Below, piece by piece: positions 2,530 to 23,562 of a DNA stretch of 24,000 nt. The position numbers and the translations under genes are program-made. Position 1 is the stretch's first letter. Each line of letters opens with the position of its first letter. The stretch comes from Clostridiaceae bacterium (lineage in GTDB: Bacteria; Bacillota; Clostridia; DSM-8532), in contig JAAYXD010000144.1 of assembly GCA_012516065.1 (NCBI GenBank), positions 4,577 to 28,576 of the forward strand, given 5' to 3'. The notes below the pieces were generated by a model. The model was not told the DNA's origin. It ran no database searches and saw only the letters and a program-made list of their open reading frames with translations.

Positions 2530-3198
2530 TCAATACAAACCGTCATACGACTGGGATTTCATGAGTTTCACCAGACGGCTGGTTCCCAGACGGTCAGCAC
2601 CGAGCTCTATATATTTCCTGGCATCATTAAAATTGGAAATGCCACCCGCTGCCTTAATTTTGACATTGGGGCCAACATGTTTTGCAAACAGCTCAATATC
2701 CTCAAAGGTGGCGCCTGCAGTGGAAAATCCCGTACTGGTTTTGATATAGTCTGCCCCGGATCTGGTTACCAAATCGCACATAACAATCTTTTCTTCTTCA
2801 GTAAGCAGGCATGTTTCAATGATGACTTTCAGAATACGTTCACCGCAGGCTTGCTTAATGGCTTTAATTTCCTTAAGTACATAGTCGTATTCTTTGTTTT
2901 TCAAGGCGCCTATATTGATGACCATATCGATTTCATCTGCGCCGTTTGCTATGGCGTCCTGGGTTTCAAAAACTTTGGCGGCAGTAGTCATATTGCCATT
3001 GGGAAAGCCGATAACGGTACAGATAACCATGCGGTCGCCTACATACTCTTTTGCGCGGGCCACATAGCATGGCGGAATGCATACTGAAGCGGTTTGATAC
3101 TTGATAGCATCGTCACAAAGTGCCTGGATTTCGGGCCAGGTAGCAGTTTGCAACAGTAATGTGTGATCCACATGGGATAATATGTCTTGTGTATTCAT
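2530..3198 (-). CDS. deoC: Deoxyribose-phosphate aldolase
   Basis: 222 aa. It has the N-terminal 'DHTLL' motif and 'ASVCIPP'. The Schiff-base lysine context is 'DYIKTSTGF', followed by 'KIKAAGGI'. SD GAAAGGAAGG lies upstream of the ATG at 3198. Confidence 0.93.
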
Positions 3199-3254: not shown

Positions 3255-3671
3255 TTATTTTTCCAAATCCTTTGGTCCAAAACCCATGGGGAGGATTTGC
3301 TCCAATGTGAAAATTTCATAATGCTGAGGGTCTTTTGCAAGTATTACTTCGAAAGTTTTTGGATCGCAAAATTCCATCATGACTTGGCGGCACACGCCGC
3401 AGGGGGCACACAAAGCCAGAGTGTCCGCTCCTTCCGGACCACCAACAATGGCAATGGCGGAAAACTCCCTGACACCTTCGCTGACTGCTTTAAAGAAAGC
3501 AGTACGTTCAGCGCAGTTGCTGGGTGTATAGGCCGCATTTTCTATGTTGCAGCCGGTATACAGCCTCCCATCTTTGGACAGCAGTGCTGCACCTACCGCA
3601 AAATGCGAATAGGGGGAATAGGATTGTTTACGTGCTTGTAAAGCATGGGAAATCAACTCAGATCGTGTCAT
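3255..3671 (-). CDS. cdd: Cytidine deaminase (small tetrameric type)
   Basis: 138 aa. The zinc and catalytic motifs are '[11 protein letters not shown]' and '[14 protein letters not shown]'. SD AGAAAGGAG lies upstream of the ATG at 3671. Confidence 0.93.
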
Positions 3672-3752: not shown

Positions 3753-4688
3753 TTACTTCTGTTTTAAATACGGTTTGCCGCTGGCGGCAGGTACGCGGGA
3801 TTTACCGACAAACAGTACCAGCGTAATGATTGTTACAACGTAAGGAATCATGGAAATCAGGTTGGGCGATATTACATTGCCTGAACCCAAAAGAACCTTT
3901 AAGCCGTTGCACAATCCGAACAGCAGGCAGGCACCCATGGCTCCGTGAGGGGTGAATTTACCGAAGATAACAGCGGCGATGGCGATAAAGCCCTGGCCGA
4001 CAATAACTTCCGGACGGAACTGGCTGACAGTGCACAGGGTAACATAAGCACCACCAAGACCTGCGAAAAAGCCGGAAGCAATCACGGCAATGTAGCGGAT
4101 GCGGAATACATTGATACCTTGAGTTTCACAAGCCTTGGGATGCTCACCTACGGCACGAAGACGCATGCCGAATCTGGTCTTGTAGAAGATAAACCATACG
4201 ATAGCCACTGCCACAAAAGCCAGATAAGTAGCAACGTAGGTGTTAAGAACATTATTCCAGAAACTTCCCACCTCGAAAACACCGTTGAACAGCTTGGGCA
4301 GCTTTTGAGCTGTGTCCAGCGGAGGAGTGTTTGAGGATTGTTCAAACAGTGCTTTGCATACGAAGATAGCTACGCCGGGTGCCAAAAAGTTTATGGCAGT
4401 ACCGGAAATGGTCTGGTCTGCGCCGAAAGAAACGCAGGCTATGGCATGAATCAGTCCGAAGAGAGCTCCAACCAGTCCTCCGCATAAAAAGGCCAGCCAG
4501 GCATTGCCGGTGAAATGAGCCACTGCCGCGCCTACAAAAGCACCGATGGTCATCATACCTTCAATACCAATGTTAACGACGCCACTGCGTTCCGAAAAAG
4601 TGGAGCCCAATGCAGCATAAAGCAAAGGAGGTGTAGCTATCAGTGTGGCGTTAATAACCAAGCCGAGATTTTTAATCAGTTCTTCCAT
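3753..4688 (-). CDS. ABC transporter permease, nucleoside/BMP-type (YufQ/NupQ-like)
   Basis: 311 aa, polytopic and glycine-rich in its TM helices, as in the BPD_transp_2 family. The start ATG directly abuts the stop of the upstream permease (TAAATG junction at 4688/4689). Confidence 0.88.
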   Translation of the reverse strand: MEELIKNLGLVINATLIATPPLLYAALGSTFSERSGVVNIGIEGMMTIGAFVGAAVAHFTGNAWLAFLCGGLVGALFGLIHAIACVSFGADQTISGTAINFLAPGVAIFVCKALFEQSSNTPPLDTAQKLPKLFNGVFEVGSFWNNVLNTYVATYLAFVAVAIVWFIFYKTRFGMRLRAVGEHPKACETQGINVFRIRYIAVIASGFFAGLGGAYVTLCTVSQFRPEVIVGQGFIAIAAVIFGKFTPHGAMGACLLFGLCNGLKVLLGSGNVISPNLISMIPYVVTIITLVLFVGKSRVPAASGKPYLKQK

Positions 4689-5807
4689 TTATTTGTCCTC
4701 CTTATTCTTAAGCCGTCTTGTAATTAAATAGCGGAATACATGTGATATGGCGATAAAGAGCACGATGGTGCCCATAATGATGTCAACGACTTCTGTGGGA
4801 GCATCAATTAGATTGAGCTTGGAGCCGCCGTATTTCATGGCACCGTAAAACAGCCCTGAAAAAATACAACCAATAGGGTGAGAGCTTGCGATTAACGCAA
4901 CGGTGATTCCCTGGAAGCCGAAGCCTTCCTGTCCGGCAAACTGACTGATGCGCATGGAGTTACCCATCAGTTGCACGGCACCGCCCAAAGCTGCCAGAGC
5001 ACCCGACAGGCTCATGGCAATATACATCGTCTTGTTGGAATTAATACCGCCGTATTTGGCTGCGTGAGGATTGAGACCAACGGCCTGTACTTTATAGCCA
5101 AGAGTGGTTTTCGTCAGGATAAACCAAATAACAATTGCCGCAATAATTGCCAGGAAAATACCGTAGTTGGCTTTATTACTCTGAAAAATATTCTGCAACG
5201 ATTGGGGCAGCAGAATTCTTGCAGATTCGCGAATATCCTTGGAAGCCTCTCCGCCGCCAACCTTGTGAATAGCTGCAGTATTGACTACATAATTTGAAAA
5301 ATAAAAGGCGATCCAGTTGAACATAATGAAGGACAAAACTTCATTGATACCGAACCGGACGCGCAGCACTGCCACCAGAAAGCTCCACAGCATGCCGGCG
5401 GCAACAGCGGCCAGCATACATAGCAGCACGTGCAACCCGGGAGGAGCGTCCACCAGGATGCCTACGCACAGAGCAGCCAGTGAGCCTACAACAAACTGCC
5501 CTTCGGCGCCGATGTTGAAAACACCCATTTTGTAAGAAAATGCCACGCTTAACCCCGTAAATATCAGCGGAGTTGCATAGATCACCGACCAAATGAGATA
5601 CTTGGGACGGCTGAACACGCTGCTGAACAGCTTTGCATATGCTTCAATGGGACTGAAGCCGGCTGCCCACAGGAAAATGCCGCCGACCAGAAATCCGAAG
5701 AAAATAGCAATAATGGTATATAGGGCATTTTGATGAATTAGTCTTTGTGCTTTAATTTTCAAAATATTCTGAGAGGGCTTGTTATTCTGGTTGTTTTTGT
5801 GTTTCAT
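4689..5807 (-). CDS. ABC transporter permease, nucleoside/BMP-type (YufP/NupP-like)
   Basis: 372 aa and polytopic. AGGAGGAA lies 6 nt upstream of the ATG at 5807. It overlaps the 3' end of the ATPase gene by 26 nt. Confidence 0.88.
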   Translation of the reverse strand: MKHKNNQNNKPSQNILKIKAQRLIHQNALYTIIAIFFGFLVGGIFLWAAGFSPIEAYAKLFSSVFSRPKYLIWSVIYATPLIFTGLSVAFSYKMGVFNIGAEGQFVVGSLAALCVGILVDAPPGLHVLLCMLAAVAAGMLWSFLVAVLRVRFGINEVLSFIMFNWIAFYFSNYVVNTAAIHKVGGGEASKDIRESARILLPQSLQNIFQSNKANYGIFLAIIAAIVIWFILTKTTLGYKVQAVGLNPHAAKYGGINSNKTMYIAMSLSGALAALGGAVQLMGNSMRISQFAGQEGFGFQGITVALIASSHPIGCIFSGLFYGAMKYGGSKLNLIDAPTEVVDIIMGTIVLFIAISHVFRYLITRRLKNKEDK

Positions 5808-7344
5808 TTTTAGTTCCTCCTGCCATCATCAGTCCTAGGACTTTTTCATCGGCCTCGTGGCCTGGCACACTGCCTACGATATTACCGCTGTAAATGACTT
5901 CAATCCTGTCGGAAAGGCTCATGATTTCATCCAGTTCAAAGGACACCAGCAGTACAGCTTTATTTTTATTGCGCTGCTCCACAATATAACGGTGAACAAA
6001 CTCGATGGCGCCTACGTCCAAACCGCGAGTCGGATTAACGGCGATAAGCAAATCCTTGTCATTGGTAACCTCACGGGCAATGATTACCTTTTGCTGGTTA
6101 CCGCCGGACAGCTTGCCTGCTTCTTTGGTGCCGCCGTCAGCACCCCGGACGTCAAATTTTTCGACAAGCTCTGCCGCATGCTTGTAAATCGCATCTTTCT
6201 TTAAAATACCGCGTTTGGAGAAAGGGGGTTGTTCATAATTTTGCAGAACCAGATTGTAAGCTACAGAATAATCCAGTATCAGCCCGTGCTTTTGCCGGTC
6301 GGCCGGAATGCTGGATACGCCGTTATCAAACAGTGTACGTGCATCGGCGTTGAACAAATCTTTGCCGCCTATTATGACTTTTCCGGATTCGCCTTTCCGC
6401 AAACCGGTTAAAATCTCCACCAGCTCGGTCTGACCATTGCCGTCTACGCCGGCTAGGCCCACGATTTCACCACGGCGCACTTTAAGGCTTAAACCCTTAA
6501 GCACTTCCACGCCGCGGTAATCCCTGGCGTGCAGGTCCTGTATGTCAATAATGACTTCACCTGGCTCAATGGGCTTCTTGTCCACCACAAATTGAACATC
6601 GCGGCCTACCATCATGGAAGCCAGATCGTGTTCACTGACAGCTTCTACATCGACAGTGCCGATATATTTGCCCTGTCGGATAATGGTACACCTGTCAGCC
6701 GAAGCCTTGATTTCCTTCAGCTTGTGGGTGATTAGCAACACGGTTTTGCCGTCGGCTGTGAGGTTGTGGATGATGTTGATCAGTTCCTCGATTTCCTGCG
6801 GTGTCAGCGAGGCGGTGGGCTCGTCGAGAATAAGGATATTGGCGCCCCGGTACAGAACTTTAAGGATTTCAACACGCTGCTGCATTCCTACCGAAATGTC
6901 TTCGATTTTGGCATCGGGATCCACATGCATGCCATAGCGCTCGGACAGTTCCAACACTTTCCGGCGTGCCTTTTTGATGTCCACCACCATACCTTTGGTG
7001 GGCTCCATGCCGAGAATAATGTTTTCGGTAACGGTAAAGGGTTCCACCAGCATGAAGTGCTGATGCACCATGCCGATTCCAAGTTCGATGGCATGGCGCG
7101 GACTCTCGATATGCACAGGAGAACCGAATATGGAGATGCTACCGGATGTCGGTTTATACAGTCCGTACAATATGTTCATCAGCGTACTTTTCCCGGCGCC
7201 GTTTTCGCCAAGAATAGCGTGAACTTCGCCTTTGTAAACGGTTAGGTTGATGTGATCGTTTGCCACGAAGTTACCGAACTTTTTGACGATGTCAGTCATT
7301 TGAACGGCAACTACGTTCGGATCAATATGGCTTGTTTTTTCCAA
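5782..7344 (-). CDS. ABC transporter ATP-binding protein with two fused ABC domains (YufO/NupO-like)
   Basis: There are two Walker A sites (GENGAGKST, GVDGNGQTE), two signature-like motifs (VGMQQRVEILKVL, LSGGNQQKVIIARE) and Walker B sites (ILILDEP, LLIAVNP). The listed 609-aa ORF runs into the upstream activase gene. I trimmed it to the TTG at 7344, which follows AAGGAGGG. The ATG at 7299 is the alternative start. Confidence 0.88.
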   Translation of the reverse strand: MEKTSHIDPNVVAVQMTDIVKKFGNFVANDHINLTVYKGEVHAILGENGAGKSTLMNILYGLYKPTSGSISIFGSPVHIESPRHAIELGIGMVHQHFMLVEPFTVTENIILGMEPTKGMVVDIKKARRKVLELSERYGMHVDPDAKIEDISVGMQQRVEILKVLYRGANILILDEPTASLTPQEIEELINIIHNLTADGKTVLLITHKLKEIKASADRCTIIRQGKYIGTVDVEAVSEHDLASMMVGRDVQFVVDKKPIEPGEVIIDIQDLHARDYRGVEVLKGLSLKVRRGEIVGLAGVDGNGQTELVEILTGLRKGESGKVIIGGKDLFNADARTLFDNGVSSIPADRQKHGLILDYSVAYNLVLQNYEQPPFSKRGILKKDAIYKHAAELVEKFDVRGADGGTKEAGKLSGGNQQKVIIAREVTNDKDLLIAVNPTRGLDVGAIEFVHRYIVEQRNKNKAVLLVSFELDEIMSLSDRIEVIYSGNIVGSVPGHEADEKVLGLMMAGGTKNETQKQPE

Positions 7345-7405: not shown

Positions 7406-8248
7406 TTAAATGATAATAATATCTTTAAAGCCTTTGGCTGCAAGCAGCCCGGCGTAATATTCCATTTGATTACGTGTCGGAATTTGCAAAGTCTCCTTAT
7501 ATTGCGGGCGAACCCCCATCGGACGATAGGATATAAGCTTATATCGGATGGGGCGAATGGGTAAGTAGCTACTGAGCATGTCGCCGATTTGTGTAATGGT
7601 TTGTTCTGCATCGAAAAGGCCTGGTGAAACTACTGTACGAACCTCAAACAGCTTACCCTTTGATGCAAGAAAACGTGCATTTTTCAATACAACCTGGTTG
7701 CTCCATCCGGTCACCCGCTTGTGTTCTTCACAGTCAAATGCTTTTATGTCAAGCATTACGCCGTCGGTAACAGCCAGCAAATCAGGATAGTGTTCAAAAT
7801 CGAGGGTTCCATTGGAGTCAATCAGGGTGGACAGGCCATGAGCCTGTGCCAGAATAAACAGCTCTGTCAGAAACTCCGGGTAAAGTGTGCATTCTCCGCC
7901 GGAAACGGTGATACCGCGGATAAATGGGATTTGCTTTTCCACCTTTCGCCAAACCTGTTCCGGTGTCATATCAACGGTTTTGGGGCTGCTGTCATGAGGG
8001 CATGCCTTGATGCAGCTGTCACAATGGACGCATTTGGCACAGTTGTAACGAACTTTTTCATCTTCGAAGCTTAATGCCCCTGTGGGGCATGAGTTGACAC
8101 ATGCCCCACAGTGCATACATTTGCATCTTGTTTCAGGATTATGGCAATACAAACAGTTCATATTGCAGCCCTGTAAAAAGATAGCGGTACGGTTGCCAGG
8201 CCCGTCAACGGTGCTGAAAGGTATGATTTTGTTGACAGTGGCCACCAT
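7406..8248 (-). CDS. yjjW: Glycyl-radical enzyme activating protein (radical SAM), YjjW-like
   Basis: 280 aa. The N-terminal 'VDGPGNRTAIFLQGCNMNCLYCHNPE' carries the CxxxCxxC radical SAM cluster. Two ferredoxin-like Cys clusters follow (CMHCGACVNSCP, CVHCDSCIKACP), as in GRE activases. 'VSGGE' forms the SAM-binding glycine motif. The start lies 2 nt after the stop of the upstream GRE gene. Confidence 0.85.
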   Translation of the reverse strand: MVATVNKIIPFSTVDGPGNRTAIFLQGCNMNCLYCHNPETRCKCMHCGACVNSCPTGALSFEDEKVRYNCAKCVHCDSCIKACPHDSSPKTVDMTPEQVWRKVEKQIPFIRGITVSGGECTLYPEFLTELFILAQAHGLSTLIDSNGTLDFEHYPDLLAVTDGVMLDIKAFDCEEHKRVTGWSNQVVLKNARFLASKGKLFEVRTVVSPGLFDAEQTITQIGDMLSSYLPIRPIRYKLISYRPMGVRPQYKETLQIPTRNQMEYYAGLLAAKGFKDIIII

Positions 8249-8250
8249 AA

Positions 8251-9795
8251 TCAGCGCACCTTTCTATCCAAAATCTTTCCATTCATGACGGCGCCCATTC
8301 CCAAAGCGGTGGTGTCCTGCAGCACATTCTGACCGCTTTTCAGCTTTTCGATTTCCGACCGTTTGACCAGGTAGCCCGTGATACGGATAACATCGCTGTT
8401 CTTCTCATAGAAGGACAGATAGCGCAATTCCTTGCGGAAGGAGCCTTTGACGATGTCCAGCACGTATTCGGGATTTTGGTGAACAGTAACATCAATAGGG
8501 AAAATGTCGCCCGTTCCGGATGGAAAATATTTATGGAAATGATTGACAACCATGAGGTGATCAATCATTTCGTCGGGTTCCTCTCCTATGGGGATACGGG
8601 TACCCGGCGAGATATTTTGATCTTCTGAAATTCCTACTTGCGCATGAAGCAGAAAATGACCGCCGGTTATTTCGCAGTAGGGGTTATGGTGTTTCTCACT
8701 GAATTCATATATCTGCTTGATGATGGATTCACCAAGCTCGGTAGCGTACTCATCGTGGCCAAAGCGGCCGGGACGGCCCTCTTTTTCCAGCAGGATATTT
8801 ACACATTCCGCCAGACCCACCAGGCCAAACATGGCAGTGAAGCGTTTGCGGCTGATAAAGCCTTCCCTGGCCAGGAAGTTATTTTCAAAGAAGCCGCTTT
8901 CTTCGACTTCAAAGCGGATACGGGAGTCCATGTAACGTGCCATGATGTCCATAACATAGGGCAGCTGGTTGGTCCTGAAATCTTCAATTCCGCCCGCGCG
9001 TTTTGCAATGTTGCCCAAAATCAGGCGGCAAAGGGTGTATGATCCGCCGCCCAGCGGCAATCCGTTATAGCAGCTGGCAATGACATAATTCTCACCAAGT
9101 TCCTGCGTAAACATGCGGTGGTTGGCAAAGCTGGGCTTGGCCGAACGCAGGGCTGTCTTGACAGCCTGAATGGCGAAGTCGTCATCGGTTACGCCTTCTT
9201 CGTATTTTAAGGTCAGATTGGGAACGGCCTGCGTAAGCTCTGCCTCCACCTCAAGCAGCAAGCGGCCGGTCCGTGTGGGCTTGGGACCGATATTTGCATG
9301 GGAGAAGGAGTCAAGAATAGTACGGTCCACGTGCACCAAAAAGCCTCGCAGAAGTTTTTTGGCCGTAGTGTCGTCAACGTCTTGCATAAAAGGTTCCAGC
9401 AGCGTATCCAACTGTCCCAGATATACCGGGAAGTTGGTTACGCTTGGAACATGCTTGTAGAAAATCAGCAGAGAATTAAGCGCTTCATATAAGTCGGTCG
9501 GTGGCGCAAGCTGCAGAAACCGGCTGCCTTCCTTCATGAATTTGGCATAGTCGGGAATGATATATCGGGGACGAAGCGGAGCGTGTCCCTCATTCAGGTC
9601 GCAGATGCATTTTCTGTCTGCCGGGACATTCATCAGCTCGTCCAGCCCCTGCGGCAAATCCAATACTTCCAGCAGAGAATCGGCAGTATTGGCCAGTGAA
9701 GCAACCTTTTGCTCGTGAGTTAGTATCGGGCTTTTGATGATATCCAGTATTTTCTTGCGCGTTTCATTCACGCGCTCCATGGAAATGTCTCTCAA
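8251..9795 (-). CDS. yjjI: YjjI-family glycyl-radical enzyme, function unknown
   Basis: 514 aa, about the size I recall for E. coli YjjI. The C-terminal 'DVIRITGYLVKR' matches the glycyl-radical fingerprint RVxG[FYW]. It is tightly coupled to a dedicated activase. The start is a TTG at 9795 preceded by GGAAGGGTGG with 7-nt spacing. Family assignment is by recollection of family features, not by alignment. Confidence 0.78.
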   Translation of the reverse strand: MRDISMERVNETRKKILDIIKSPILTHEQKVASLANTADSLLEVLDLPQGLDELMNVPADRKCICDLNEGHAPLRPRYIIPDYAKFMKEGSRFLQLAPPTDLYEALNSLLIFYKHVPSVTNFPVYLGQLDTLLEPFMQDVDDTTAKKLLRGFLVHVDRTILDSFSHANIGPKPTRTGRLLLEVEAELTQAVPNLTLKYEEGVTDDDFAIQAVKTALRSAKPSFANHRMFTQELGENYVIASCYNGLPLGGGSYTLCRLILGNIAKRAGGIEDFRTNQLPYVMDIMARYMDSRIRFEVEESGFFENNFLAREGFISRKRFTAMFGLVGLAECVNILLEKEGRPGRFGHDEYATELGESIIKQIYEFSEKHHNPYCEITGGHFLLHAQVGISEDQNISPGTRIPIGEEPDEMIDHLMVVNHFHKYFPSGTGDIFPIDVTVHQNPEYVLDIVKGSFRKELRYLSFYEKNSDVIRITGYLVKRSEIEKLKSGQNVLQDTTALGMGAVMNGKILDRKVR

Positions 9796-9849
9796 TTGTT
9801 CGCCACCCTTCCTTGGATAATCAAGGTTATTTTGCTCAAATCGTTAAAA

Positions 9850-10917
9850 TTAGTCGTCTAATTCGTATATGTTGCCGTATTTTGCTTCAAACTCAGCCTT
9901 GGTCTTCGGAACGGTAATTTTACCGTTGATGATGTCCTGCTTAGCTTGGTTTACATAATCGAGAACTTCCTTTGGCAGGTTGGTGGTGGTAGGAGCGATG
10001 TCTACACCTGCGGACTTTAAGTCATACGTGATGATGCCAGGCTTAACATTGCCTTCCTTTACGGCTTTGGCAATATCAAAGCATGCATTGTCAACGCGTT
10101 TCATAGCAGAGGTCAGAATGTTTTCAGGAGCAAGCGGGGACTGGTCGCTGTCTACACCGATTGCCCATTTGCCTGCGTCTTTACAGCCTTCGATTACGCC
10201 TAAGCCCGTTCCGCCAGCTGCGTGGAAGATTACATCCGCGCCGTTGGTGATCATTGTGGTAGCAGCGGATTTACCGGTTTCGGTGCTGCTGAAAGAGTTA
10301 GCGTTGAACTGCAGGATAGTAGCATTGGGGTTGGCATCTTTCACGCCGGCAAGATACCCGTAACCGAATTCGTTCATGGTCTGGCTGACCATACCGACAA
10401 CAAATCCTACTTTGTTTGTTTTGGTCATTTTACCGGCAACAAGGCCAACCAGGTAGGAAGCCTGGCTCTGCTCGAACATCAGGCAGGTAACGTTGGGCAA
10501 ATCGATGGAAGCATCGTCAATGATGGCAAATTTCTGATTTGGATTGGCTTCAGCTGCTTTTCTGGTGGCATCAGCCAGCATGTATCCTACACAGATGATG
10601 AGGTCATAGCCTTCATCAATGAAAGCCTCAATGTTGGGAGCATAGTCGGCATCGGTTGCAGATTCGGCATAGCGAACTTCTACACCAAGTTCTTTTTGAG
10701 CGCGCTGCAGACCTTCCCAGGCAGACTGGTTGAATGAGCCGTCGTTTACACCGCCAACATCGGTAACCATACCAATCTTAATCTTCTTGCCCCCGGTATT
10801 GTTGCTGCTGTTGTTATTACTGCTGTTATTGCTGTTGTTGCCGGAATTTTTTCCGCCACATGCAGTCAGGGAAAAGACTATTATAACGGATAATAGTAAT
10901 GCCAGAAATTTTTTCAT
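9850..10917 (-). CDS. BMP-family (PnrA/NupN/Med-like) nucleoside-binding lipoprotein, ABC substrate-binding component
   Basis: The signal peptide carries the lipobox 'FSLTAC'. An Asn/Ser-rich linker follows. The BMP-family core shows 'KIGMVTDVGGVNDGSFNQSAWEGL', 'GYDLII' and 'WAIGVDSDQ'. Confidence 0.9.
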   Translation of the reverse strand: MKKFLALLLSVIIVFSLTACGGKNSGNNSNNSSNNNSSNNTGGKKIKIGMVTDVGGVNDGSFNQSAWEGLQRAQKELGVEVRYAESATDADYAPNIEAFIDEGYDLIICVGYMLADATRKAAEANPNQKFAIIDDASIDLPNVTCLMFEQSQASYLVGLVAGKMTKTNKVGFVVGMVSQTMNEFGYGYLAGVKDANPNATILQFNANSFSSTETGKSAATTMITNGADVIFHAAGGTGLGVIEGCKDAGKWAIGVDSDQSPLAPENILTSAMKRVDNACFDIAKAVKEGNVKPGIITYDLKSAGVDIAPTTTNLPKEVLDYVNQAKQDIINGKITVPKTKAEFEAKYGNIYELDD

Positions 10918-10999: not shown

Positions 11000-11710
11000 T
11001 TAGATAATTCCAAGGGCGACTTCAATCATATTTTTGAAACCGAGCTGGCGTTCCTGAGCCGACAGTTCTGTACCTTTGTAGATGTGGTCGGAGATGGACA
11101 GGATACACAAAGCATTTTTTCCTGCCTGGGCCGCATTCATGTATAAAGCTGCCGCTTCCATTTCGATACACAACACGCCCATGCTTTTCCAGGCATCGTT
11201 AGCGCCTTTATTGGCGTTGTAAAACACATCCGTGGAAAGAACATTGCCGATGGCGACGCTGATTCCTTTTTTCTGTGCTTCCTCAATGGCTTTTTGCATC
11301 AGCGTGTAGCTGGCAATAGGTGCAAACGTTCCGGGGAGCTGGTATTGGTTGGCGTAATTGGAGTCGGTGCAGGCTCCCATGGCGATAACGAGATCTTTTA
11401 GATCCAGATCGTCGCTTAAGGCACCGGCCGAGCCTATGCGGATGATATTGTCCACATCGTAGAAATTGAAAAGCTCGTATGAATAAATACCGATAGAGGG
11501 AATACCCATCCCGTGACCCATAACAGACACCGGCTTTCCCTGATAGGTGCCGGTAAAACCTAACATATTGCGCACTGTATTAAAACAAGTGACATTTTCC
11601 AGATAGGTTTCGGCAATAAATTTTGCACGAAGTGGATCACCGGGCATCAAAACCGTTTTTGCAATTTGTCCTTCCACCGCTGCGTTGTGCGCAGTGGGCA
11701 CTCTGCTCAT
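11000..11710 (-). CDS. deoD: Purine nucleoside phosphorylase, DeoD type
   Basis: It runs colinear with my recollection of E. coli DeoD: 'VLMPGDPLRAKFIAETYLE', 'MLGFTGTYQGKPVSVMGHGMGIPS', 'GACTD', 'IEMEAAALY' and 'SDH'. I trimmed the listed ORF to the ATG at 11710, which has AAAGGAGGTG 5 nt upstream. Confidence 0.93.
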   Translation of the reverse strand: MSRVPTAHNAAVEGQIAKTVLMPGDPLRAKFIAETYLENVTCFNTVRNMLGFTGTYQGKPVSVMGHGMGIPSIGIYSYELFNFYDVDNIIRIGSAGALSDDLDLKDLVIAMGACTDSNYANQYQLPGTFAPIASYTLMQKAIEEAQKKGISVAIGNVLSTDVFYNANKGANDAWKSMGVLCIEMEAAALYMNAAQAGKNALCILSISDHIYKGTELSAQERQLGFKNMIEVALGII

Positions 11711-12098
11711 TTTTTCACCTCCTTTCTTTTGATTGAGTTTCATCTTCACGAATAAGTTCACGAATGGCATCAACCGCAGCGGCCGGTGCCAATTCGGTAT
11801 CGTGCACCTGGGGATTATTTTCCTCCTTCTAAGGAAATTATTGGCAAAAGAACAGATGTATTTATATAAGCTTTAGGACCTGCAATAAAGTTTTGCATTT
11901 TTACAATCCTGATATGAAGCTTTAATTAAGTCCTCCACGTGAATTAATTTTTCCACTTGCTTCATGTTTTCTTCTGCTCATAATACCGGAGCCTTTCTAA
12001 AGTAAATGCTCTGATATTATGATAACTTATAGTATGTGAATATTGTACAGGTAATATAATGTAATTACATTTTTGCAAAAGGCTAAACAATATGCTTA

Positions 12099-12127
12099 TT
12101 GATACTTATAAATTGTTAGTATATAAT
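12099..12127 (+). promoter_or_regulatory. Sigma-A-type promoter candidate
   Basis: TTGATA (12099-12104), a 17-nt spacer, then TATAAT (12122-12127). It faces the orphan gene at 12386 and implies a leader of roughly 250 nt. Confidence 0.6.
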
Positions 12128-12385
12128 GTTTAAAAAAAGAATGCAAAAATATACATTTTGAGGATGAATTTATCGAAAAAATGGAGAAGAAAATAACAAG
12201 AATAGAAAAAGATTTTGAAGAAGGAAATAAAACACCTGAAGAATTACTGAAAGAATTAGATGATAGTTCAGATATAGACTGATAAACATTAATCCGGGAA
12301 ACTCGTAGCTATATAGCCAGGAAAGGGAATTTTTTGGTTGAATAAAAAGATTACAAAAAACCAATTTCAAATATCAGGAGTGAAA

Positions 12386-13129
12386 ATGATGAATGATGGG
12401 AAAGAAAAAAAGAATGAAAGCAATGCTGAGAGCGGGAGTGATTACGAAAGAATAGATGATATATTTTTCCGCCAGATTAATGAGAGGAGAAAGGAAGACC
12501 CGTTGATAGGCGCCAAACTGGGTGCTAAAGAAATTTTCAACACTTTATTGAATGCTGTCAGGGATTCAAGAGGTGTACATATTGAGACTCTTATATGCGC
12601 ACTGGGAGCCCTTGCGGGTTATTCATGCCAGGCGAGCCTGAGGAAAGAATTCGTTGAGATCAGAGGACTGAGTGAAGAACAGGTGTTTACGGTCATACAG
12701 GCGAAAAACGGCAAGAGGTACTTTTTTGGCGACCTTATAAACAAGCCGCTGTTTGAAAATCAATATTCTGTATGGTCCCTGGCTGCCGGCATAGTGCAGC
12801 ACATGGGTGTGAATATTGATTTTGACATCCTTGAGATTTTCAAATATGTCTCTGCCACGGTCGGTACCGAGAACTACGGCATTCCAAGGATTCCAGAGGG
12901 ACACCGGACGGCAGACGTTCCGATCAATTTTGTCAAGGCTTTTTGGCCGTTGTTCCTCCCCCGTATTGAGAAGTATTGCGCTTCCCCGCGTGAGTGGCCG
13001 GTTTTATTTGGATTGGCGATACAGGATGGACTGCTTCAGGGGAAGGATGTCATAGACCCTTCACTGGCGCTTAAAATAGTTATGGAAAGTGCCATTCCGA
13101 TGGCAAAGGCTGAGATTGTGTTTGATTAG
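12386..13129 (+). CDS. Hypothetical protein with no recognisable family
   Basis: I trimmed the 263-aa ORF to the ATG at 12386, which has AGGAG 5 nt upstream, giving 247 aa. It has a charged, low-complexity N-terminus (KEKKNESNAESGSDYER) followed by a globular-looking region. A strong terminator follows at 13150. I could identify no motif. Confidence 0.6.
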   Translation: MMNDGKEKKNESNAESGSDYERIDDIFFRQINERRKEDPLIGAKLGAKEIFNTLLNAVRDSRGVHIETLICALGALAGYSCQASLRKEFVEIRGLSEEQVFTVIQAKNGKRYFFGDLINKPLFENQYSVWSLAAGIVQHMGVNIDFDILEIFKYVSATVGTENYGIPRIPEGHRTADVPINFVKAFWPLFLPRIEKYCASPREWPVLFGLAIQDGLLQGKDVIDPSLALKIVMESAIPMAKAEIVFD

Positions 13130-13480: not shown

Positions 13481-14341
<861 letters not shown>

Positions 14342-14355
14342 CTAACCTCCGTAAT

Positions 14356-15159
14356 CTATATGGTATATTCCGGCTGTGGCAGCGCACTTGCCAGATGCAG
14401 TTTTTCTAATATATTCCGTCGAAGGGAAAGAAATTCGGTTCCTCCACGATGCCGAGGATGTGGGAGATTAATCTCCATGATCTCACTGATTTTTCCGGGC
14501 CGCGGAGTCATAACCACAATACGGTCGGAAAGATAGATTGCTTCGTCCACATCGTGGGTTACCAGAATCATTGTCGTTTTATTTTCTTTATGAAGCTCAA
14601 GCAATTTATCCTGAATATCGGAACGGGTAAAGGAATCTAAGGCACTCATGGGTTCATCAAGAAGCAGTACCTTTGGATTATTGATCAATGCCCTGGCAAT
14701 AGCAACTCTCTGAGCCATACCTCCGCTTAACTGATGCGGGTAACATTTTTCAAACCCCTTAAGTCCAATCAGGTCTATATAATGGGCAATACGGTGTTTA
14801 TTCTCCCTATAAACATGGCGTGCCTTAAGTCCGGTTGCGATATTTTTCTCAACAGTCAGCCATTGAAAAAGACCTCCATGCTGAAAAACGTAGCCCCGCT
14901 CTGGATCTGGTCCGGAGATTTGCTCTCCGTTAAGAATCAGGGTTCCTGTTTCCGGCTTGTCAAGACCTGCTATAAGCCGTAAGAGCGTCGTCTTTCCGCA
15001 ACCGGAGGAACCTATGATGGAAAGGAATTCTCCCCGGCGGACGGACAAATTGATATCCCGAAGTACCTCAACATGGTTTCCGGCGTCGTCATAATAAGTG
15101 TAATTTACATTTTCTATATGTAAAATAATATCACTGATTACCGATAAGTTTTTGCTCAT
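14356..15159 (-). CDS. ABC transporter ATP-binding protein, NitT/TauT (nitrate/sulfonate/taurine) family
   Basis: Walker A is GSSGCGKTT, the signature is LSGGMAQRVAIARAL, Walker B is LLLDEP and the H-loop is VTHD. An ATGA overlap joins it to the permease stop at 15156-15159. Confidence 0.9.
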   Translation of the reverse strand: MSKNLSVISDIILHIENVNYTYYDDAGNHVEVLRDINLSVRRGEFLSIIGSSGCGKTTLLRLIAGLDKPETGTLILNGEQISGPDPERGYVFQHGGLFQWLTVEKNIATGLKARHVYRENKHRIAHYIDLIGLKGFEKCYPHQLSGGMAQRVAIARALINNPKVLLLDEPMSALDSFTRSDIQDKLLELHKENKTTMILVTHDVDEAIYLSDRIVVMTPRPGKISEIMEINLPHPRHRGGTEFLSLRRNILEKLHLASALPQPEYTI

Positions 15160-16223
15160 TCCTTAACCCATCCTTTCTGCCACCGGAGCACATTCGCCTG
15201 TATTAGCCCCAGTATTTTCATAATTAGACTGAACAGCAGGGCCATAACGAGAATGGAGGCAAATACCTTATAGTAGGCAGACCACACCTTGCTTAAATTT
15301 ATGTAGTAACCCAATCCTCCCGGCTGGCCCATCATCTCTGCCATTACCAAAGTTGTAAAAGCAAAACCATTGGCATTGGAAATACCGGTAAAAATCTGGG
15401 GCATGGCCTGAGGCACTGCAACATGGAATATTAAAAATGGCGTTTTTGCCCCCAGGGTGCGAGCTACTTCGAACTGATACTTTGGGGTGGATTGTATGCC
15501 CTGGGCTGTAAGAGCCGCAATGGAAAACCATGCGCATATTACAATAAGAAAAACAGCTGCTGAAAACGGAGACGGGAAAAGCGTCAGTGCAAAGGGCATC
15601 CACGCTACGGCAGGAATGACACCGGTAATCTTTAATATTGGATATACCCAATAATATACCTTTGGAAACCAACCGATTAAAATTCCCGTACCCACTCCAA
15701 ACACCACACCCAGAGTAAATCCGGCCAAAAAAAGTTTAATGGAGTAAAGGGTATTTTGTAAAATAAAATCTCCTTCAATCAAAAAGGATTCAAGAATTTT
15801 TGCCGGTCCCGGGAAAAACGGCTGCGGTAATAAAAGAAGCTTTGTTCCTAATATATCCCAAGCTGTAATAGCCAGACCCATAGCGAAACGAAAGGGAGCC
15901 TGCCTGGAAAATTTTTCTCTTCGCACAGGATCAAAATATGAAAATATTCCCATACCGGCATAAATCAAAATAATTACTACCAGGACCAATCGGTAAAGCA
16001 AATTAAATGTGAAGGGAATTCCTGCAACAAAATAAGTTTTGATTTCCACATTTGCCACTTGCTTCACCAGAATATTGGCTGCTATGGCTACAGCAAACCC
16101 TGCCAGTGTCAGTACAAAATTAGTACTCCAATTTTGGGCCGAAACCGTTTTTAGTTTTCCATATTGTTGCTTTACTTTTAATTCCGAGGATGTTGGGCTT
16201 TGTAGTTTTACTAAATCGTACAT
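15156..16223 (-). CDS. ABC transporter permease, NitT/TauT family (SsuC/TauC-like) with an N-terminal extension
   Basis: It is polytopic with an EAA-loop region 'ARTLGAKTPFLIFHVAVPQAMPQIFTGI'. AGGAGGT lies 8 nt upstream of the ATG at 16223. At 355 aa it is longer than I recall for SsuC/TauC, which are roughly 250-280 aa. Confidence 0.85.
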   Translation of the reverse strand: MYDLVKLQSPTSSELKVKQQYGKLKTVSAQNWSTNFVLTLAGFAVAIAANILVKQVANVEIKTYFVAGIPFTFNLLYRLVLVVIILIYAGMGIFSYFDPVRREKFSRQAPFRFAMGLAITAWDILGTKLLLLPQPFFPGPAKILESFLIEGDFILQNTLYSIKLFLAGFTLGVVFGVGTGILIGWFPKVYYWVYPILKITGVIPAVAWMPFALTLFPSPFSAAVFLIVICAWFSIAALTAQGIQSTPKYQFEVARTLGAKTPFLIFHVAVPQAMPQIFTGISNANGFAFTTLVMAEMMGQPGGLGYYINLSKVWSAYYKVFASILVMALLFSLIMKILGLIQANVLRWQKGWVKE

Positions 16224-16250
16224 AGCAGAATACCTCCTGTGGGGTGTTTA

Positions 16251-16285
16251 TTATTTCCGCCCGGTTCCTCCGGTTCACCGGGCGG
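16251..16285 (-). other. Perfect 11-bp GC-rich intercistronic stem-loop after the substrate-binding-protein gene
   Basis: TTTCCGCCCGG (16251-16261), a 13-nt loop, then CCGGGCGGAAA (16275-16285). No U-tract follows on the minus transcript. Its position just 3' of the SBP gene is typical of hairpins that stabilise the SBP segment of ABC operon mRNAs. Confidence 0.6.
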
Positions 16286-16303
16286 AAACAATCTTTGGAA
16301 ATA

Positions 16304-17365
16304 TTATAAACCCAGGTTGATGTCGACCTCGACATAAGCATTCTTTGTGAAAGTATCAGGATCCGTCTTTAAATATCCAATTTGGTTCAATTGTTCGGCA
16401 AAATAGTAAACATTGTCTCGAACCTGTGTTTTATTTTTTTCCCGTTCGGCATAAGAAGGGTATTGATAGCTCTTGATAAGCTTAATGGCTAATTCTCTGT
16501 CTTCAATCTGCGCGTATTTACCATTTATTATAATGTCGACGGCTTCTTCCGGGTTTTCCGAAATCCAGTTTTGGGCTGCCCTATATGCACGCAGCAATGC
16601 GGCAACCTGTTCTGGTTTTTCGTCAAGCAGCTTTTCCGAAGCATAAAGGAAACAGCAGTATTTTCCGGCAAAAGGTTCATCCTTGGAAATATCAAGAATT
16701 ACACGGTAATTTCCCGTTTTTTCCTGAACAGAGCCGAAGGGATCCCACAGTGCCGCAACATCAACCTCTCCTTTTCTCAGGGCTTCCACTGCCAGATTTC
16801 CGTCGGAGAAGGGAAGGAACGTAACTTCTCCGTCCTCCTGCTTTGCGGAAATTCCGTTTTTCTCCAGCCACACCGATGCTACCTGATGGGGAGTGCCGCC
16901 TATTTCATCAACGCTGATCTTTTTTCCCCTAAGGTCTTGAACTCCTTGAATCGGTGAATCCTTCGGAACAATCAGTTTTATGCATCCATAGTGGAGACCG
17001 TCCACCACCTTTACCTTCACATTGTTTTCAATAGAGGGAAAGAACTGAAAGTCCCCGTTGACAATCGGGATGGTACCGTTGTTCAAACCGATTTTACGGG
17101 TTTCGGTATCTGCCGATATAAGGTTGACATCAAAGCCCTCTTGCTTGAAAAAGCCCTTTTCATATGCAATATAGATAGGTGCACCGCAAAGTGAACCGTC
17201 TTTACCGGGAATATCAATTTTTCCGTATTTGTATTCTGCTGAAGATGTCCCCGTTTTCCCGTTGTCCTGGGTACCTCCCGTATTCGTCCTGCCACATCCG
17301 GAAAACAAGCCTATAAAAATGGAAAACAGAGCGACTGCACTGATCAATTTTATAAAACCTTTCAT
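16304..17365 (-). CDS. ABC transporter substrate-binding lipoprotein, NMT1/SsuA/TauA-like (NitT/TauT family)
   Basis: The signal peptide carries the lipobox 'LFSGCG'. The periplasmic-binding fold region resembles the aliphatic-sulfonate/NMT1 type. I trimmed the ORF to the ATG at 17365, downstream of GGGGTG. It starts 24 nt after the metY-like stop. Confidence 0.82.
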   Translation of the reverse strand: MKGFIKLISAVALFSIFIGLFSGCGRTNTGGTQDNGKTGTSSAEYKYGKIDIPGKDGSLCGAPIYIAYEKGFFKQEGFDVNLISADTETRKIGLNNGTIPIVNGDFQFFPSIENNVKVKVVDGLHYGCIKLIVPKDSPIQGVQDLRGKKISVDEIGGTPHQVASVWLEKNGISAKQEDGEVTFLPFSDGNLAVEALRKGEVDVAALWDPFGSVQEKTGNYRVILDISKDEPFAGKYCCFLYASEKLLDEKPEQVAALLRAYRAAQNWISENPEEAVDIIINGKYAQIEDRELAIKLIKSYQYPSYAEREKNKTQVRDNVYYFAEQLNQIGYLKTDPDTFTKNAYVEVDINLGL

Positions 17366-17389
17366 GATAAAACACACCCCTTTACGAAA

Positions 17390-18706
17390 TTATATATATG
17401 CCTTTTCAAACGCCTGTTCCAAATCAGCTATTAAATCTGCCGGATCTTCCAGTCCTGCCGATATGCGAATTAAGTTTTCCGGAATATCGGCAAATTTTTT
17501 CTCATCAGGCTCCAGTTCACTATGGGTGGTTTGCGGAGAATTTACAATCAGGCTGCGGGCATCCCCAATATTGACATGATAATGAAAGAGTTTCACTGAG
17601 TTCAAGAAAGTTTCCCTTTGAGCCGTTGTCCCTTTGAAACCGAATGACAGGATTCCTCCCGCTCCTTTTGGGAAATCCCTTTGTGCCAGCTCATAATAGG
17701 GGCTATCCTTCAAACCGGGGTAACGAACCCATTCCACCGACTTGTGGGATTTTAGGTATTCCGCCAGGATACTGGCATTACGCACTTGTTTTTCAACGCG
17801 CTCAGACAGGGTTTCCAATCCGATTAAAACAAGGTAGGCATCAAAAGGCGATAATGCCGCTCCAAAGTAGTTGAGATAGTTAAAGCGTATCCTGCCGGTA
17901 AACGGAGCCTCCGGAAATACTTCAAGAAAACTGCGGTAGTTATCGTTAATGTCCCGCAGGGTATAATACTTTTCCGAAAACTGAGGGAATTTATCGCTCT
18001 GCCAGTTGAATTTACCGCTTTCCAGCACCAGTCCGGCAATAACGTTTCCGTGTCCCGTCAATCCTTTGGTCGCAGAGTAGACCACAATGTCGGCCCCATG
18101 GGAAATAGGGTTATACAAGTACGGCGTTGCAACTGTATTGTCTACAATCAGAGGTATGCCATGTTCATGGGCGACTTTCGCAATCGCATCAATGTCCAAA
18201 AGAGCGGCATTGGGATTGCTGATGCTTTCCACATAGATTGCTTTGGTATCGGGCTTAATTTCTTCCGAAAGCTTTTCAGGATTTTCTATATTTTTAGCAA
18301 AATCGAAGGTTATACCAAATTTAGGATAAACTTTTTTAAAACTGTCCGCACTGCCGCCATAGAGATAGGGAGAAGTCAAAATACGACCTCCGCCCTCTGC
18401 AACATTGAGCAGAGTATAACTGATAGCTGCCATGCCGGAAGCCAGTGCCACTGCACCGCTGGCTCCGTCAAGGGCCGCTACCCGTTGCTCCAGTACAGCA
18501 ACCGTAGGATTTCCAATGCGGGTATAAAGGTTTCCCAATTCGCGAAGTCCAAATAAAGCTTTTGCATGCTCTACATCGCGAAAGTCAAAGGAAGTGGTCT
18601 GATAAATGGGCGGCGATACGGCATAGTTATGCTCCTTTGGATCATAGCCTGCCCGCAGTCTTTGAGTATCAAACCGATATGCAGTTTTTTCTAATTCGTT
18701 TGCCAT
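17390..18706 (-). CDS. metY: O-acetylhomoserine sulfhydrylase / aminocarboxypropyltransferase (Cys/Met-metabolism PLP enzyme)
   Basis: It belongs to the Cys_Met_Meta_PP family. Supporting motifs are 'YTRIGNPT', 'ASGMAAI', 'VDNTVATPYL' and the PLP-lysine context 'YSATKGLTGHG'. I trimmed the ORF to the ATG at 18706, which has AGGAGGAG 7 nt upstream. Confidence 0.9.
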   Translation of the reverse strand: MANELEKTAYRFDTQRLRAGYDPKEHNYAVSPPIYQTTSFDFRDVEHAKALFGLRELGNLYTRIGNPTVAVLEQRVAALDGASGAVALASGMAAISYTLLNVAEGGGRILTSPYLYGGSADSFKKVYPKFGITFDFAKNIENPEKLSEEIKPDTKAIYVESISNPNAALLDIDAIAKVAHEHGIPLIVDNTVATPYLYNPISHGADIVVYSATKGLTGHGNVIAGLVLESGKFNWQSDKFPQFSEKYYTLRDINDNYRSFLEVFPEAPFTGRIRFNYLNYFGAALSPFDAYLVLIGLETLSERVEKQVRNASILAEYLKSHKSVEWVRYPGLKDSPYYELAQRDFPKGAGGILSFGFKGTTAQRETFLNSVKLFHYHVNIGDARSLIVNSPQTTHSELEPDEKKFADIPENLIRISAGLEDPADLIADLEQAFEKAYI

Positions 18707-18780
18707 GTTAAATCTCCTCCTATAAATAAATTTGAAAGTATACATCGGGGCATTTCCGTCATGTCACAGTCACTACACAT
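18691..18780 (-). CDS. 29-codon upstream ORF MCSDCDMTEMPRCILSNLFIGGDLTWQTN (candidate Cys/Met-sensing leader peptide or Cys-rich micro-protein)
   Basis: It is below the ORF-track size cutoff and was found by hand translation of the minus strand. The ATG at 18780 has AGGAGGTG 7 nt upstream, one of the best SDs in the window. Three Cys and three Met (including the initiator) fall in the first 13 codons. The ORF reads across the metY SD and ends in a TAG 16 nt inside metY, in a different frame. Confidence 0.45.
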   Translation of the reverse strand: MCSDCDMTEMPRCILSNLFIGGDLTWQTN

Positions 18781-18860
18781 ATCAAACCACCTCCTAAAGG
18801 ATTGATAAATATACAGCTTTATTTCATCAAGTTACACTTGCTGCTGCCAATTTTTTATTT

Positions 18861-18908
18861 TTTTCAATCATGTAAACTTCTCTCTGTTCATCTGTTTTCA
18901 ATCATGTT
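18861..18908. repeat. Direct repeat TTTTCAATCATGT x2 with 35-nt periodicity in the nifB-like/metY spacer
   Basis: There are perfect 13-mers at 18861-18873 and 18896-18908. Extended to 17 nt they differ at two positions (TTTTCAATCATGTAAAC versus TTTTCAATCATGTTTAC). They lie in the only long non-coding gap (232 nt) of the cluster. Confidence 0.85.
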
Positions 18909-18977
18909 TACTTTCAACCTGCACAATATATAGGGCAATATCATTAACAAACTCTTAAGCTTTCAATTGCGCAACTT

Positions 18978-19853: not shown

Positions 19854-19865
19854 AAAACTTCCTCC

Positions 19866-20201
19866 TTAACCGCCTTCTTCATGCAAGCGGCCACCGACCA
19901 GTTGGGCAAGGATCTCTTCCACTTCACCGGTTGCTTCAAAGACTCTTTTGCCTTTGGCTATCATAACAGCTGCCGCAGCCTGACCTATTTTCAAAACAAA
20001 TATTGCATCACAGTCCTCCAACACTGAAAGAAGATGGTCAAATCCGCCTTCGCAATGACCCTGACATTTGGCGGCCGTTTTTCGGGTCTCCACAAAACGC
20101 GCCTCTTTATCCACATCATATATCTGCCAGTATCTGGCCGAGCCAAAGTGTTGATCAATAACAGTGCCGTCAATACTGGCAAATCCAATACGGTAACTCA
20201 T
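19866..20201 (-). CDS. NifX/NafY/NifB-C-terminal-domain protein (dinitrogenase Fe-Mo cofactor biosynthesis domain)
   Basis: 111 aa after trimming to the ATG at 20201, which has AAGGAGGG 7 nt upstream. 'IDQHFGSARYWQIYDV' matches the HFG-type motif of this small cofactor-binding fold. It sits directly upstream of the NifB-like gene, like a split NifB. Confidence 0.78.
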   Translation of the reverse strand: MSYRIGFASIDGTVIDQHFGSARYWQIYDVDKEARFVETRKTAAKCQGHCEGGFDHLLSVLEDCDAIFVLKIGQAAAAVMIAKGKRVFEATGEVEEILAQLVGGRLHEEGG

Positions 20202-20214
20202 ACGGTCGCCCTCC

Positions 20215-23514: not shown

Positions 23515-23562
23515 AAAAACCACCCCTTTTGTATTAAACATATATGATTAGTATGTTTTAAA

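Follow-up and report, generated by a model that had tools for sequence, protein, structure and literature searches.

In the 24,000-nucleotide (nt) stretch of contig JAAYXD010000144.1 from a Clostridiaceae bacterium that we analysed here (hereafter the window), a glycyl-radical enzyme (GRE) of the YjjI family and its activase YjjW are encoded inside an operon for nucleoside uptake and catabolism, and we are somewhat inclined to believe that the two form a dedicated enzyme/activase pair that is functionally part of nucleoside utilisation. The operon is a minus-strand unit of nine genes in the order deoD-lbp(bmp)-yjjI-yjjW-ABC ATPase-permease-permease-cdd-deoC, with all gaps being 82 nt or shorter. 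The first-pass annotation had described the pair as lying between the gene of a BMP-family lipoprotein and the ATPase and permease genes of its transporter, and this was confirmed in every detail, as were the RITGY motif of the GRE, the start of yjjW 2 nt beyond the yjjI stop codon, and the presence on the same strand of deoD upstream and of cdd and deoC downstream. The product of yjjI (8251-9795, minus strand; Clo1313_2343 / Cthe_1577) scored 693 bits on TIGR04040 (cut-off 498) and matched PF11230 over profile positions 1-485 of 485 (E = 3e-228), and that of yjjW (7406-8248, minus strand; Clo1313_2344 / Cthe_1578) scored 398 bits on TIGR04041 (cut-off 250). Because the family scores are far above the curated cut-offs, chance is no issue for the gene assignments.

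We surveyed the genomic context of 171 YjjI loci, at which open reading frames (ORFs) were called, all proteins were clustered and recurrent clusters were named by Pfam and NCBIfam; grouping of the YjjI proteins at 65% identity gave 21 lineages. Nucleoside genes were located no more than one gene away in five to six of the 21 lineages, five being specific and the sixth (L079) weak, and the partners were not homologous to one another, comprising Bmp-ABC, NupC, DeoD/Udp, an IU-nucleoside hydrolase (IUNH) with ribokinase, and deoCABD. An association with nucleoside or (deoxy)ribose genes beyond Escherichia coli and the present genome, as anticipated by the first-pass annotation, was therefore found, but about two thirds of the lineages were without any such genes nearby. 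When small gene families were ranked by the number of YjjI lineages in which they recur, purine nucleoside phosphorylase (PNP) and IUNH took the lead.

In the clade to which the window belongs (67-92% identity, mostly Lachnospiraceae plus Acetivibrio), the order Bmp-YjjI-YjjW-ATPase-permease-permease is the rule. Among its 64 loci, Bmp was present at 48, a PNP-family protein at 29, Cdd at 25, DeoB at 16, DeoC at 16 and adenosine deaminase (Add) at 14; further members of the clusters are a uridine kinase and a Crp-like regulator. Two sub-lineages of the clade have relocated the YjjI-YjjW pair, and rearranged clusters that retain the nucleoside linkage were observed at L027, L037, L039, L059 and L070. 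The other contexts differ in their components. For example, in Haemophilus-like contigs the genes yjjI-yjjW-nupC-deoD are co-directional, separated by 8, 100 and 83 nt, and the NupC scored 547 bits on TIGR00804; the same neighbours of yjjI are given for H. influenzae in an independent genome note (PMC5609409). In a low-GC group, an ABC transporter, an IU-nucleoside hydrolase and LacI or ribokinase precede YjjI-YjjW, and the ribokinase is a true one (334 bits on TIGR02152). At L129, a tight operon encodes an RbsK-like PfkB kinase, two copies of IUNH, a DeoD-type phosphorylase, a sulfatase-family protein, YjjI and YjjW; the fifth of these genes (L129, 3322-4857) belongs to the sulfatase/alkaline-phosphatase superfamily (PF00884, 1.8e-52) and lies 3 nt upstream of YjjI.

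From the first 80 loci and nine single genomes, the association had seemed to be confined to one clade and E. coli; this view was rejected because a metagenome scan with distant representatives revealed the Haemophilus-like NupC/DeoD and the IUNH/ribokinase contexts. A PfkB kinase in lineage 14 was likewise dropped as nucleoside evidence, since the kinase of L145 is no ribokinase (69 bits versus a cut-off of 300). The YjjI family forms about 20 full-length clusters at 50% identity and is carried by at least 594 bacterial species in a one-genome-per-species collection, including abundant gut Lachnospiraceae and Haemophilus. In an alignment of 50 sequences, 38-96% identical to the window protein, 69 positions are invariant, which argues for a single function across the whole family, so that context from any lineage would be informative for all. 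The invariant residues include R77, Y78, H166, N193, K220, N244, R257, E311, H384, Q386, D392 and R400.

Several further neighbours of the pair were recorded. At L088 (Caminicella sporogenes), a dihydrofolate reductase gene (7499-8008) shares 8 nt with the beginning of yjjI, and downstream of yjjW is a gene for an Asp/Glu racemase. At seven Clostridia-like loci (L132, L135, L136, L142, L165, L168 and L177), YjjI-YjjW immediately precedes ruvA-ruvB-(SpoIID-like)-queA-tgt, and upstream is a gene with a phosphoribosyltransferase domain that looked xpt-like by eye and matched only PF00156 in Pfam. Although queuosine genes are nearby, this arrangement is probably housekeeping synteny.

The locus has been encountered before in Acetivibrio (Clostridium) thermocellum, in which the exact YjjW sequence and a YjjI of the same 90%-identity cluster are recorded (Cthe_1577/1578, ADU75365/6). 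Residues 23-355 of the lipoprotein encoded next to yjjI are 100% identical to PDB 7X0R ('Lbp') from Clostridium (Acetivibrio) thermocellum, the species to which the window is assigned. The protein was first named laminaribiose-binding protein, and its 1.50 Å structure held co-purified guanosine (PMC9601137); the name looks like a misnomer, because Lbp is a Bmp/PnrA family protein that was crystallised with guanosine. The gene-map legend of the same paper lists an 'hp' and an 'rsam' gene, which fit YjjI and YjjW, and the pair is not discussed there. Lbp resembles the binding proteins of the PnrA/Bmp importers, such as PnrA of Treponema pallidum (2FQW) and BmpD of Borrelia (6SHU), in being a PF02608 lipoprotein (177 bits to 2FQW), in having the same partners, a two-domain ATPase and two BPD_transp_2 permeases, and in the guanosine ligand of its crystal (PMC9601137). 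The usual order in such importers is binding protein-ATPase-permease-permease, which we observed uninterrupted at L039, L069 and L070, whereas in the window yjjI and yjjW are inserted after the binding-protein gene. In a xylose-engineered strain grown on xylose versus cellobiose, lbp (Clo1313_2342) rose 2.0-fold, yjjI (Clo1313_2343) 2.2-fold, the ABC transporter genes Clo1313_2345-2347 2.7- to 3.0-fold and cdd (Clo1313_2348) 1.9-fold (PMC7471329 supplement). These genes are therefore co-expressed, which counts in favour of a role of the pair in nucleoside utilisation.

In E. coli K-12, the first-pass annotation had placed yjjI-yjjW next to deoCABD, and this proved correct: yjjW-yjjI is divergent from deoCABD across a gap of 257 bp. 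E. coli YjjI (b4380, with YjjW as b4379) belongs to the same family, with 41% identity, and shares all 31 invariant positions of a 19-sequence alignment. The E. coli pair is likewise adjacent to deo genes, but is divergent from them and outside any transporter operon, and is FNR-regulated with a DeoR operator inside yjjI. We located two DeoR operator sequences 599 bp apart (L001, 10665-10680 and 11264-11279) that bracket the 5' end of yjjI. One of them is perfect and lies within the yjjI coding region, and the other, 45 bp ahead of deoC, has a single mismatch, which places the promoter and 5' end of yjjI within the deo repression loop. Previous studies found E. coli yjjI to be directly activated by FNR (PMC3688515) and co-expressed with nitrate-respiration genes (PMC3228777).

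A search of the PDB found no solved structure for the YjjI family. An AlphaFold (AF2) model of YjjI based on the 50-sequence alignment had a pLDDT of 91.9 and a pTM of 0.91, and in a Foldseek comparison with the PDB its top 21 matches were all class III ribonucleotide reductases (NrdD; E 1.5e-16 to 5e-14), followed by a second tier of PFL-like dehydratases and pyruvate formate-lyase (PFL) itself (E 1e-13 to 1e-11). The NrdD proteins of Prevotella copri (8P23/8P2C), phage T4 (1H7B) and Thermotoga maritima (4COJ) were the best structural matches (TM about 0.65-0.75), and hhalign aligned YjjI residues 47-370 with residues 142-532 of E. coli NrdD at 92% probability. Profile scores were below threshold for both groups, with 21.9 bits on PF13597 (NRDD; gathering score 26.2) and 19.5 bits on PF02901 (cut-off 24.3). 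The C-terminal glycyl loops of YjjI and P. copri NrdD both read RITGYLV, with the Tyr after the radical Gly conserved, and both proteins have a cysteine at the tip of the central finger loop and a similarly compact size. In the window protein the glycyl-radical motif RITGY occupies residues 471-475 (8371-8385, minus strand), Gly474 being the predicted radical site, and the Cys-loop motif SCYN, residues 241-244 (9064-9075, minus strand), contains Cys242 as the predicted thiyl-radical cysteine; R471, T473, G474, S241, C242, Y243 and N244 were invariant among the 50 aligned sequences.

One possibility is that YjjI is a true reductase, a stripped-down relative of the class III enzymes that would use formate as the reductant to make the 2-deoxy forms of ribonucleosides, ribonucleoside monophosphates or ribose phosphate, and in this way supply DeoC. 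In addition to the closest fold and the NrdD-like glycyl motif with its conserved Tyr, the presence of deoC in the operon here and its adjoining yjjI in E. coli, as well as the anaerobic regulation of the E. coli gene via FNR, are consistent with such an activity. We nevertheless consider it quite improbable in view of the NrdD features that YjjI lacks. The cysteine on the first barrel strand (Cys171 in P. copri NrdD, Cys175 in E. coli) is without a counterpart in YjjI, where hhalign placed a gap beside R77-Y78, and the HxHD motif is replaced by ICDL (residues 64-67, 9595-9606, minus strand), or by IHDL in some members, a remnant according to the hhalign comparison with E. coli NrdD in which only the Asp is retained. 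In NrdD, the first-strand cysteine is required in all described mechanisms and HxHD binds the triphosphate (PMC11226230). Cys65, the only other frequent cysteine of YjjI, was entertained as the missing second redox cysteine and rejected, since it is His in several distant family members in the 19-sequence alignment and aligns with the NrdD phosphate motif. The finger loop of NrdD is nine residues longer than that of YjjI, which carries Cys242, and the ATP-cone is absent from YjjI. A C-terminal zinc Cys4 site, as in T4 NrdD, is a defining feature of the class III enzymes, whereas YjjI has no cysteine after residue 375. Moreover, YjjI is encoded together with genes for nucleoside import and catabolism rather than nucleotide synthesis, and there is no deoC in the Haemophilus-like and IUNH/RbsK contexts.

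Comparison with the PFL side of the superfamily gave a similar picture. An old annotation of the gene as 'hypothetical formate acetyltransferase, hfat' implies a PFL-type ketoacid formate-lyase, with which the weak PF02901 match, a local similarity to formate acetyltransferases around the PNLT...C-loop and the resemblance of YjjW to the PFL activase would agree. This identity is hardly credible, however, since YjjI has a single cysteine, in Ser241-Cys242, aligned where PFL needs the pair C418-C419, is 514 amino acids (aa) long versus about 760 aa for PFL, and ranks NrdD first in fold, and since formate acetyltransferase is listed under a different gene of the organism, 'fat' (Clo1313_1717; PMC3706431). 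The PFL-like dehydratases and lyases (PflD/YbiW 8ID0/8YJO, glycerol dehydratase 1R8W, HypD 6VXC and CutC) match in the second fold tier, with sequence similarity to YjjI limited to a short stretch, and have an activase of the same type as YjjW, with a ferredoxin-like insert; redox-neutral elimination with sugar phosphates as substrates has its precedent here, in the anhydro-sugar-phosphate dehydratases PflD/YbiW. Comparison of the predicted structure with PFL, NrdD and the lyases, as the first-pass annotation had suggested, thus revealed a NrdD-like fold but, for each of NrdD, PFL and the eliminases, missing active-site features. Because the NrdD features are missing and both the Cys-Cys pair of PFL and the C-x-E motif of the eliminases are absent, we regard YjjI as a branch of its own, with a reductase-like predicted core, outside the reductase family.

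A link of YjjI to nucleoside or ribosyl metabolism is, in our judgement, reasonably probable, and the role in anaerobic nucleoside or (deoxy)ribose metabolism that the first-pass annotation had put forward draws support from the recurrence across lineages, the guanosine-containing Lbp crystal (PMC9601137) and the NrdD-like fold. In the pathway that we envisage, nucleosides, of which guanosine has been shown to be bound by Lbp, would be imported via Lbp and the ABC transporter, and base and sugar would be processed by enzymes that, by family assignment, are DeoD and Cdd, joined in relatives by Udp, Add, DeoB and DeoC. By analogy with the family, YjjW, using S-adenosylmethionine (SAM) and a low-potential electron, would generate a radical on Gly474 of YjjI, the radical would move from Gly474 to Cys242, and Cys242 would take a hydrogen atom from the substrate, which from the context may be a nucleoside or a derived pentose phosphate. 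Hydrogen abstraction on the ribose ring might then be followed by beta-elimination of the neighbouring substituent in a redox-neutral, dehydratase- or lyase-like reaction. Because YjjI has neither a second redox cysteine nor a triphosphate motif, such a redox-neutral reaction is more likely than a net reduction, although elimination on the ribose ring as the specific chemistry is put forward tentatively and is on balance unlikely.

The absence from the window of deoB and of a pyrimidine nucleoside phosphorylase was confirmed as an observation, neither homologue being found among the window ORFs. The suggestion that this absence leaves room for an alternative radical route was not upheld, since relatives encode both enzymes in the YjjI cluster: DeoB occurs at 16 YjjI loci, and a second PNP-family protein is a uridine phosphorylase (331 bits on TIGR01718, cut-off 280). 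YjjI is therefore no substitute for DeoB or a pyrimidine phosphorylase. A more ambitious proposal is that YjjI is a ribose-ring radical enzyme of a new kind, an evolutionary intermediate between class III reductase and the PFL-type enzymes, that strips a ribonucleoside or ribose phosphate of its 2'-substituent, through either dehydration or formate-dependent reduction, to create a deoxyribose-5-phosphate shunt; we consider this distinctly unlikely. If true, RNA-derived ribose would be converted anaerobically to deoxyribose-5-phosphate and, via DeoC, to acetaldehyde and glyceraldehyde-3-phosphate, and elimination or reduction on the ribose ring outside nucleotide synthesis would represent a new class of GRE reaction and a new anaerobic route for RNA carbon.

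YjjI could instead act on a special nucleoside or base, such as queuosine, a 2'-O-methyl nucleoside or pseudouridine from RNA turnover, that phosphorylases and hydrolases do not cleave. Genes for the usual cleavage enzymes (DeoD, Udp, IUNH) always accompany that of YjjI, which would therefore probably do something beyond their reach, and the gene order at L079, where IUNH is followed by an energy-coupling factor (ECF) S-component, and the position of YjjIW directly upstream of ruvAB-queA-tgt in several Clostridia could be read in the same way. However, the partners do not consistently indicate any one modified nucleoside, the order ruvAB-queA-tgt is common as a housekeeping arrangement, and the numerous invariant Arg and Lys residues hint at a substrate that is anionic and perhaps phosphorylated, so that we find this alternative very doubtful. 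Recurrent nucleoside linkage, together with a fold closest to the reductases, narrows the search for the substrate to nucleosides, nucleotides and pentose phosphates.

A number of observations weigh against the participation of YjjI-YjjW in nucleoside utilisation. The recurrence across lineages corresponds to a rough binomial P of about 1e-4 to 3e-3, but the background of 4-7% per lineage behind this value is our own estimate from E. coli gene counts rather than a measured genome-wide control. In 13 to 15 of the 21 lineages, including those of Vibrio, Ferrimonas, Proteus, several Clostridia and an actinobacterial metagenome-assembled genome, no nucleoside gene was found within 8-10 kb. At L092 (Proteus alimentorum) the order is radA-serB-smp-yjjI-yjjW, that of E. 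coli minus the intervening deoCABD-hipH-lplA, and deo adjacency is therefore specific to Enterobacteriaceae within a conserved neighbourhood. An insertion mutant of the C. thermocellum operon (transporter-L) grew normally on glucose, cellobiose, Avicel and laminaribiose (PMC9601137), and Clo1313_2343, which was disrupted in 2013 as 'hypothetical formate acetyltransferase' by a clean single insertion, gave a viable mutant with no phenotype reported (PMC3706431). As for the enzyme itself, the assignment of its active site rests on alignments, and its activase is PflC/PflE-like with two extra clusters instead of the NrdG that serves NrdD. GRE 1,2-eliminases possess a C-x-E motif in which a general-base Glu stands two residues after the Cys; the PFL-like dehydratases and lyases are 760-850 aa proteins with this motif, whereas YjjI, with 514 aa, has C-Y-N.

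These points could be accommodated if the linkage were incidental or purely regulatory, with YjjI-YjjW being a self-contained module for an unrelated anaerobic metabolite that resides in co-induced operons. In most lineages the pair stands alone in variable contexts, some genomes of the nucleoside clade have it beside amylase/FtsH or NfnAB-like genes, the E. coli gene responds to FNR and is expressed with nitrate-respiration genes (PMC3688515, PMC3228777), and the mutants lack a sugar-growth phenotype. On the other hand, the recurrence of non-homologous Bmp-ABC, NupC, PNP, IUNH, RbsK and deoCABD partners in five to six distinct lineages, several with spacers of -14 to 100 nt that would hardly arise by chance, and the persistence of the association through rearrangement in the window's clade make incidental linkage, in our view, unlikely, and participation in nucleoside utilisation remains the reading that we prefer.

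To our knowledge, YjjI is the last E. coli GRE without a reaction. We found no reaction assigned to it in the literature searched, in which the latest mention of YjjI dates from August 2026, and NCBI classes TIGR04040 as a hypothetical equivalog. A preprint of August 2026, which calls YjjI an uncharacterised putative GRE, reported the in-vivo labelling of Gly465 of E. coli YjjI, the equivalent of Gly474, with a radical probe (bioRxiv 10.64898/2026.08.13.742689), suggesting a radical at this glycine and giving an indirect hint of a stable glycyl radical. The YjjI family and its genomic position had already been catalogued; new here are the family-wide nucleoside association with multiple partners, the placement of the fold closest to that of class III reductase with a list of missing features, and the identification of a tractable organism. 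C. thermocellum is genetically tractable, and a yjjI disruptant, a transporter mutant and a guanosine-bound Lbp structure already exist.

The activase YjjW contains a radical-SAM CX3CX2C motif at residues 28-35 (8144-8167, minus strand) and two ferredoxin-type Cys motifs (8084-8119 and 7997-8032, minus strand), and it scored 161 bits on the PflC/PflE subfamily model versus only 39-78 bits on the NrdG models. A YjjW-type activase gene was found at 142 of the 171 YjjI loci. At L016, L018, L020, L021, L047, L103, L114 and L121, full-length YjjI was present and tblastn detected no YjjW within 8-10 kb; at L016, YjjW is missing from an otherwise intact Bmp-YjjI-ABC operon. The activase of such loci would be either encoded in another part of the genome or replaced by a different one. 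Two candidate starts were identified for yjjI, a TTG at 9795 (514 aa), which lies 7 nt after the ribosome-binding site GGAAGGGTGG and gives a length in agreement with 514-aa homologues, and an ATG at 9780 (509 aa), which is used in the RefSeq records.

The remaining genes of the operon, all on the minus strand, were assigned as follows. The first, deoD (11000-11710), encodes a purine nucleoside phosphorylase of 236 aa (TIGR00107, 307 bits) and starts with an ATG at 11710 preceded by the ribosome-binding site AAAGGAGG; lbp (9850-10917; Clo1313_2342) encodes the Bmp/PnrA-type nucleoside-binding lipoprotein (PF02608, 2e-78) with the lipobox LTAC. The ABC transporter ATPase (5782-7344) has 520 aa and two ATP-binding domains (two PF00005 matches), and its gene begins 61 nt past the yjjW stop with a TTG codon and the ribosome-binding site AAGGAGGG. 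It is followed by permease 1 (4689-5807; PF02653, 2.7e-43) and permease 2 (3753-4688; PF02653, 1.9e-46), both of the BPD_transp_2 type, by cdd for cytidine deaminase (3255-3671; TIGR01354, 142 bits) and by deoC for deoxyribose-phosphate aldolase (2530-3198; TIGR00126, 253 bits). An AT-rich region at 11711-12337 is likely to contain the operon promoter and regulatory sequences on the minus strand, with promoter-like hexamers, identified as consensus matches only, at 12118-12176. A search for FNR-like palindromes gave matches no commoner than chance and none significant in this region, an Rfam scan matched no family, and a terminator scan revealed no terminator-like site on the minus strand in any intergenic gap of the operon. 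A sequence scan located a palindromic hairpin, CCTTGGATAATCAAGG, at 9811-9826 in the 54-nt spacer between lbp and yjjI, which may act on the transcript beyond the binding-protein gene as a stabilising or attenuating element.

The distal end of the operon (2530-3198 in the window) differs between strains; in L004 (16734 onward), a metagenome contig with an identical YjjI, genes for an AMP-binding enzyme and an aldo-keto reductase replace deoC and the two-component genes. The latter, at 42-2304 on the plus strand of the window and convergent with deoC, encode an AraC-type response regulator (Clo1313_2350), whose expression rose only 1.5-fold on xylose, and a histidine kinase (His_kinase/HATPase_c); in other genomes, these two genes are not conserved beside YjjI. 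Divergent from deoD is a plus-strand ORF of 263 aa (12338-13129) that gave no Pfam or NCBIfam match and is conserved only in contigs of the same species. Adjoining the operon is a nitrogenase-like cluster (13481-23541, minus strand), which is not linked to YjjI outside this species and which encodes a NifH scoring 463 bits on TIGR01287, above the cut-off, two NifD/K-like proteins far under the nitrogenase cut-offs, a short NifB-like radical-SAM protein and a NifX-like protein, together with an O-acetylhomoserine sulfhydrylase, an SsuA-type ABC transporter and a GNAT acetyltransferase. An inversion within the SsuA-type ABC region was observed in L003 and L004. The cluster resembles sulfur-salvage nitrogenase-like systems rather than those for nitrogen fixation.

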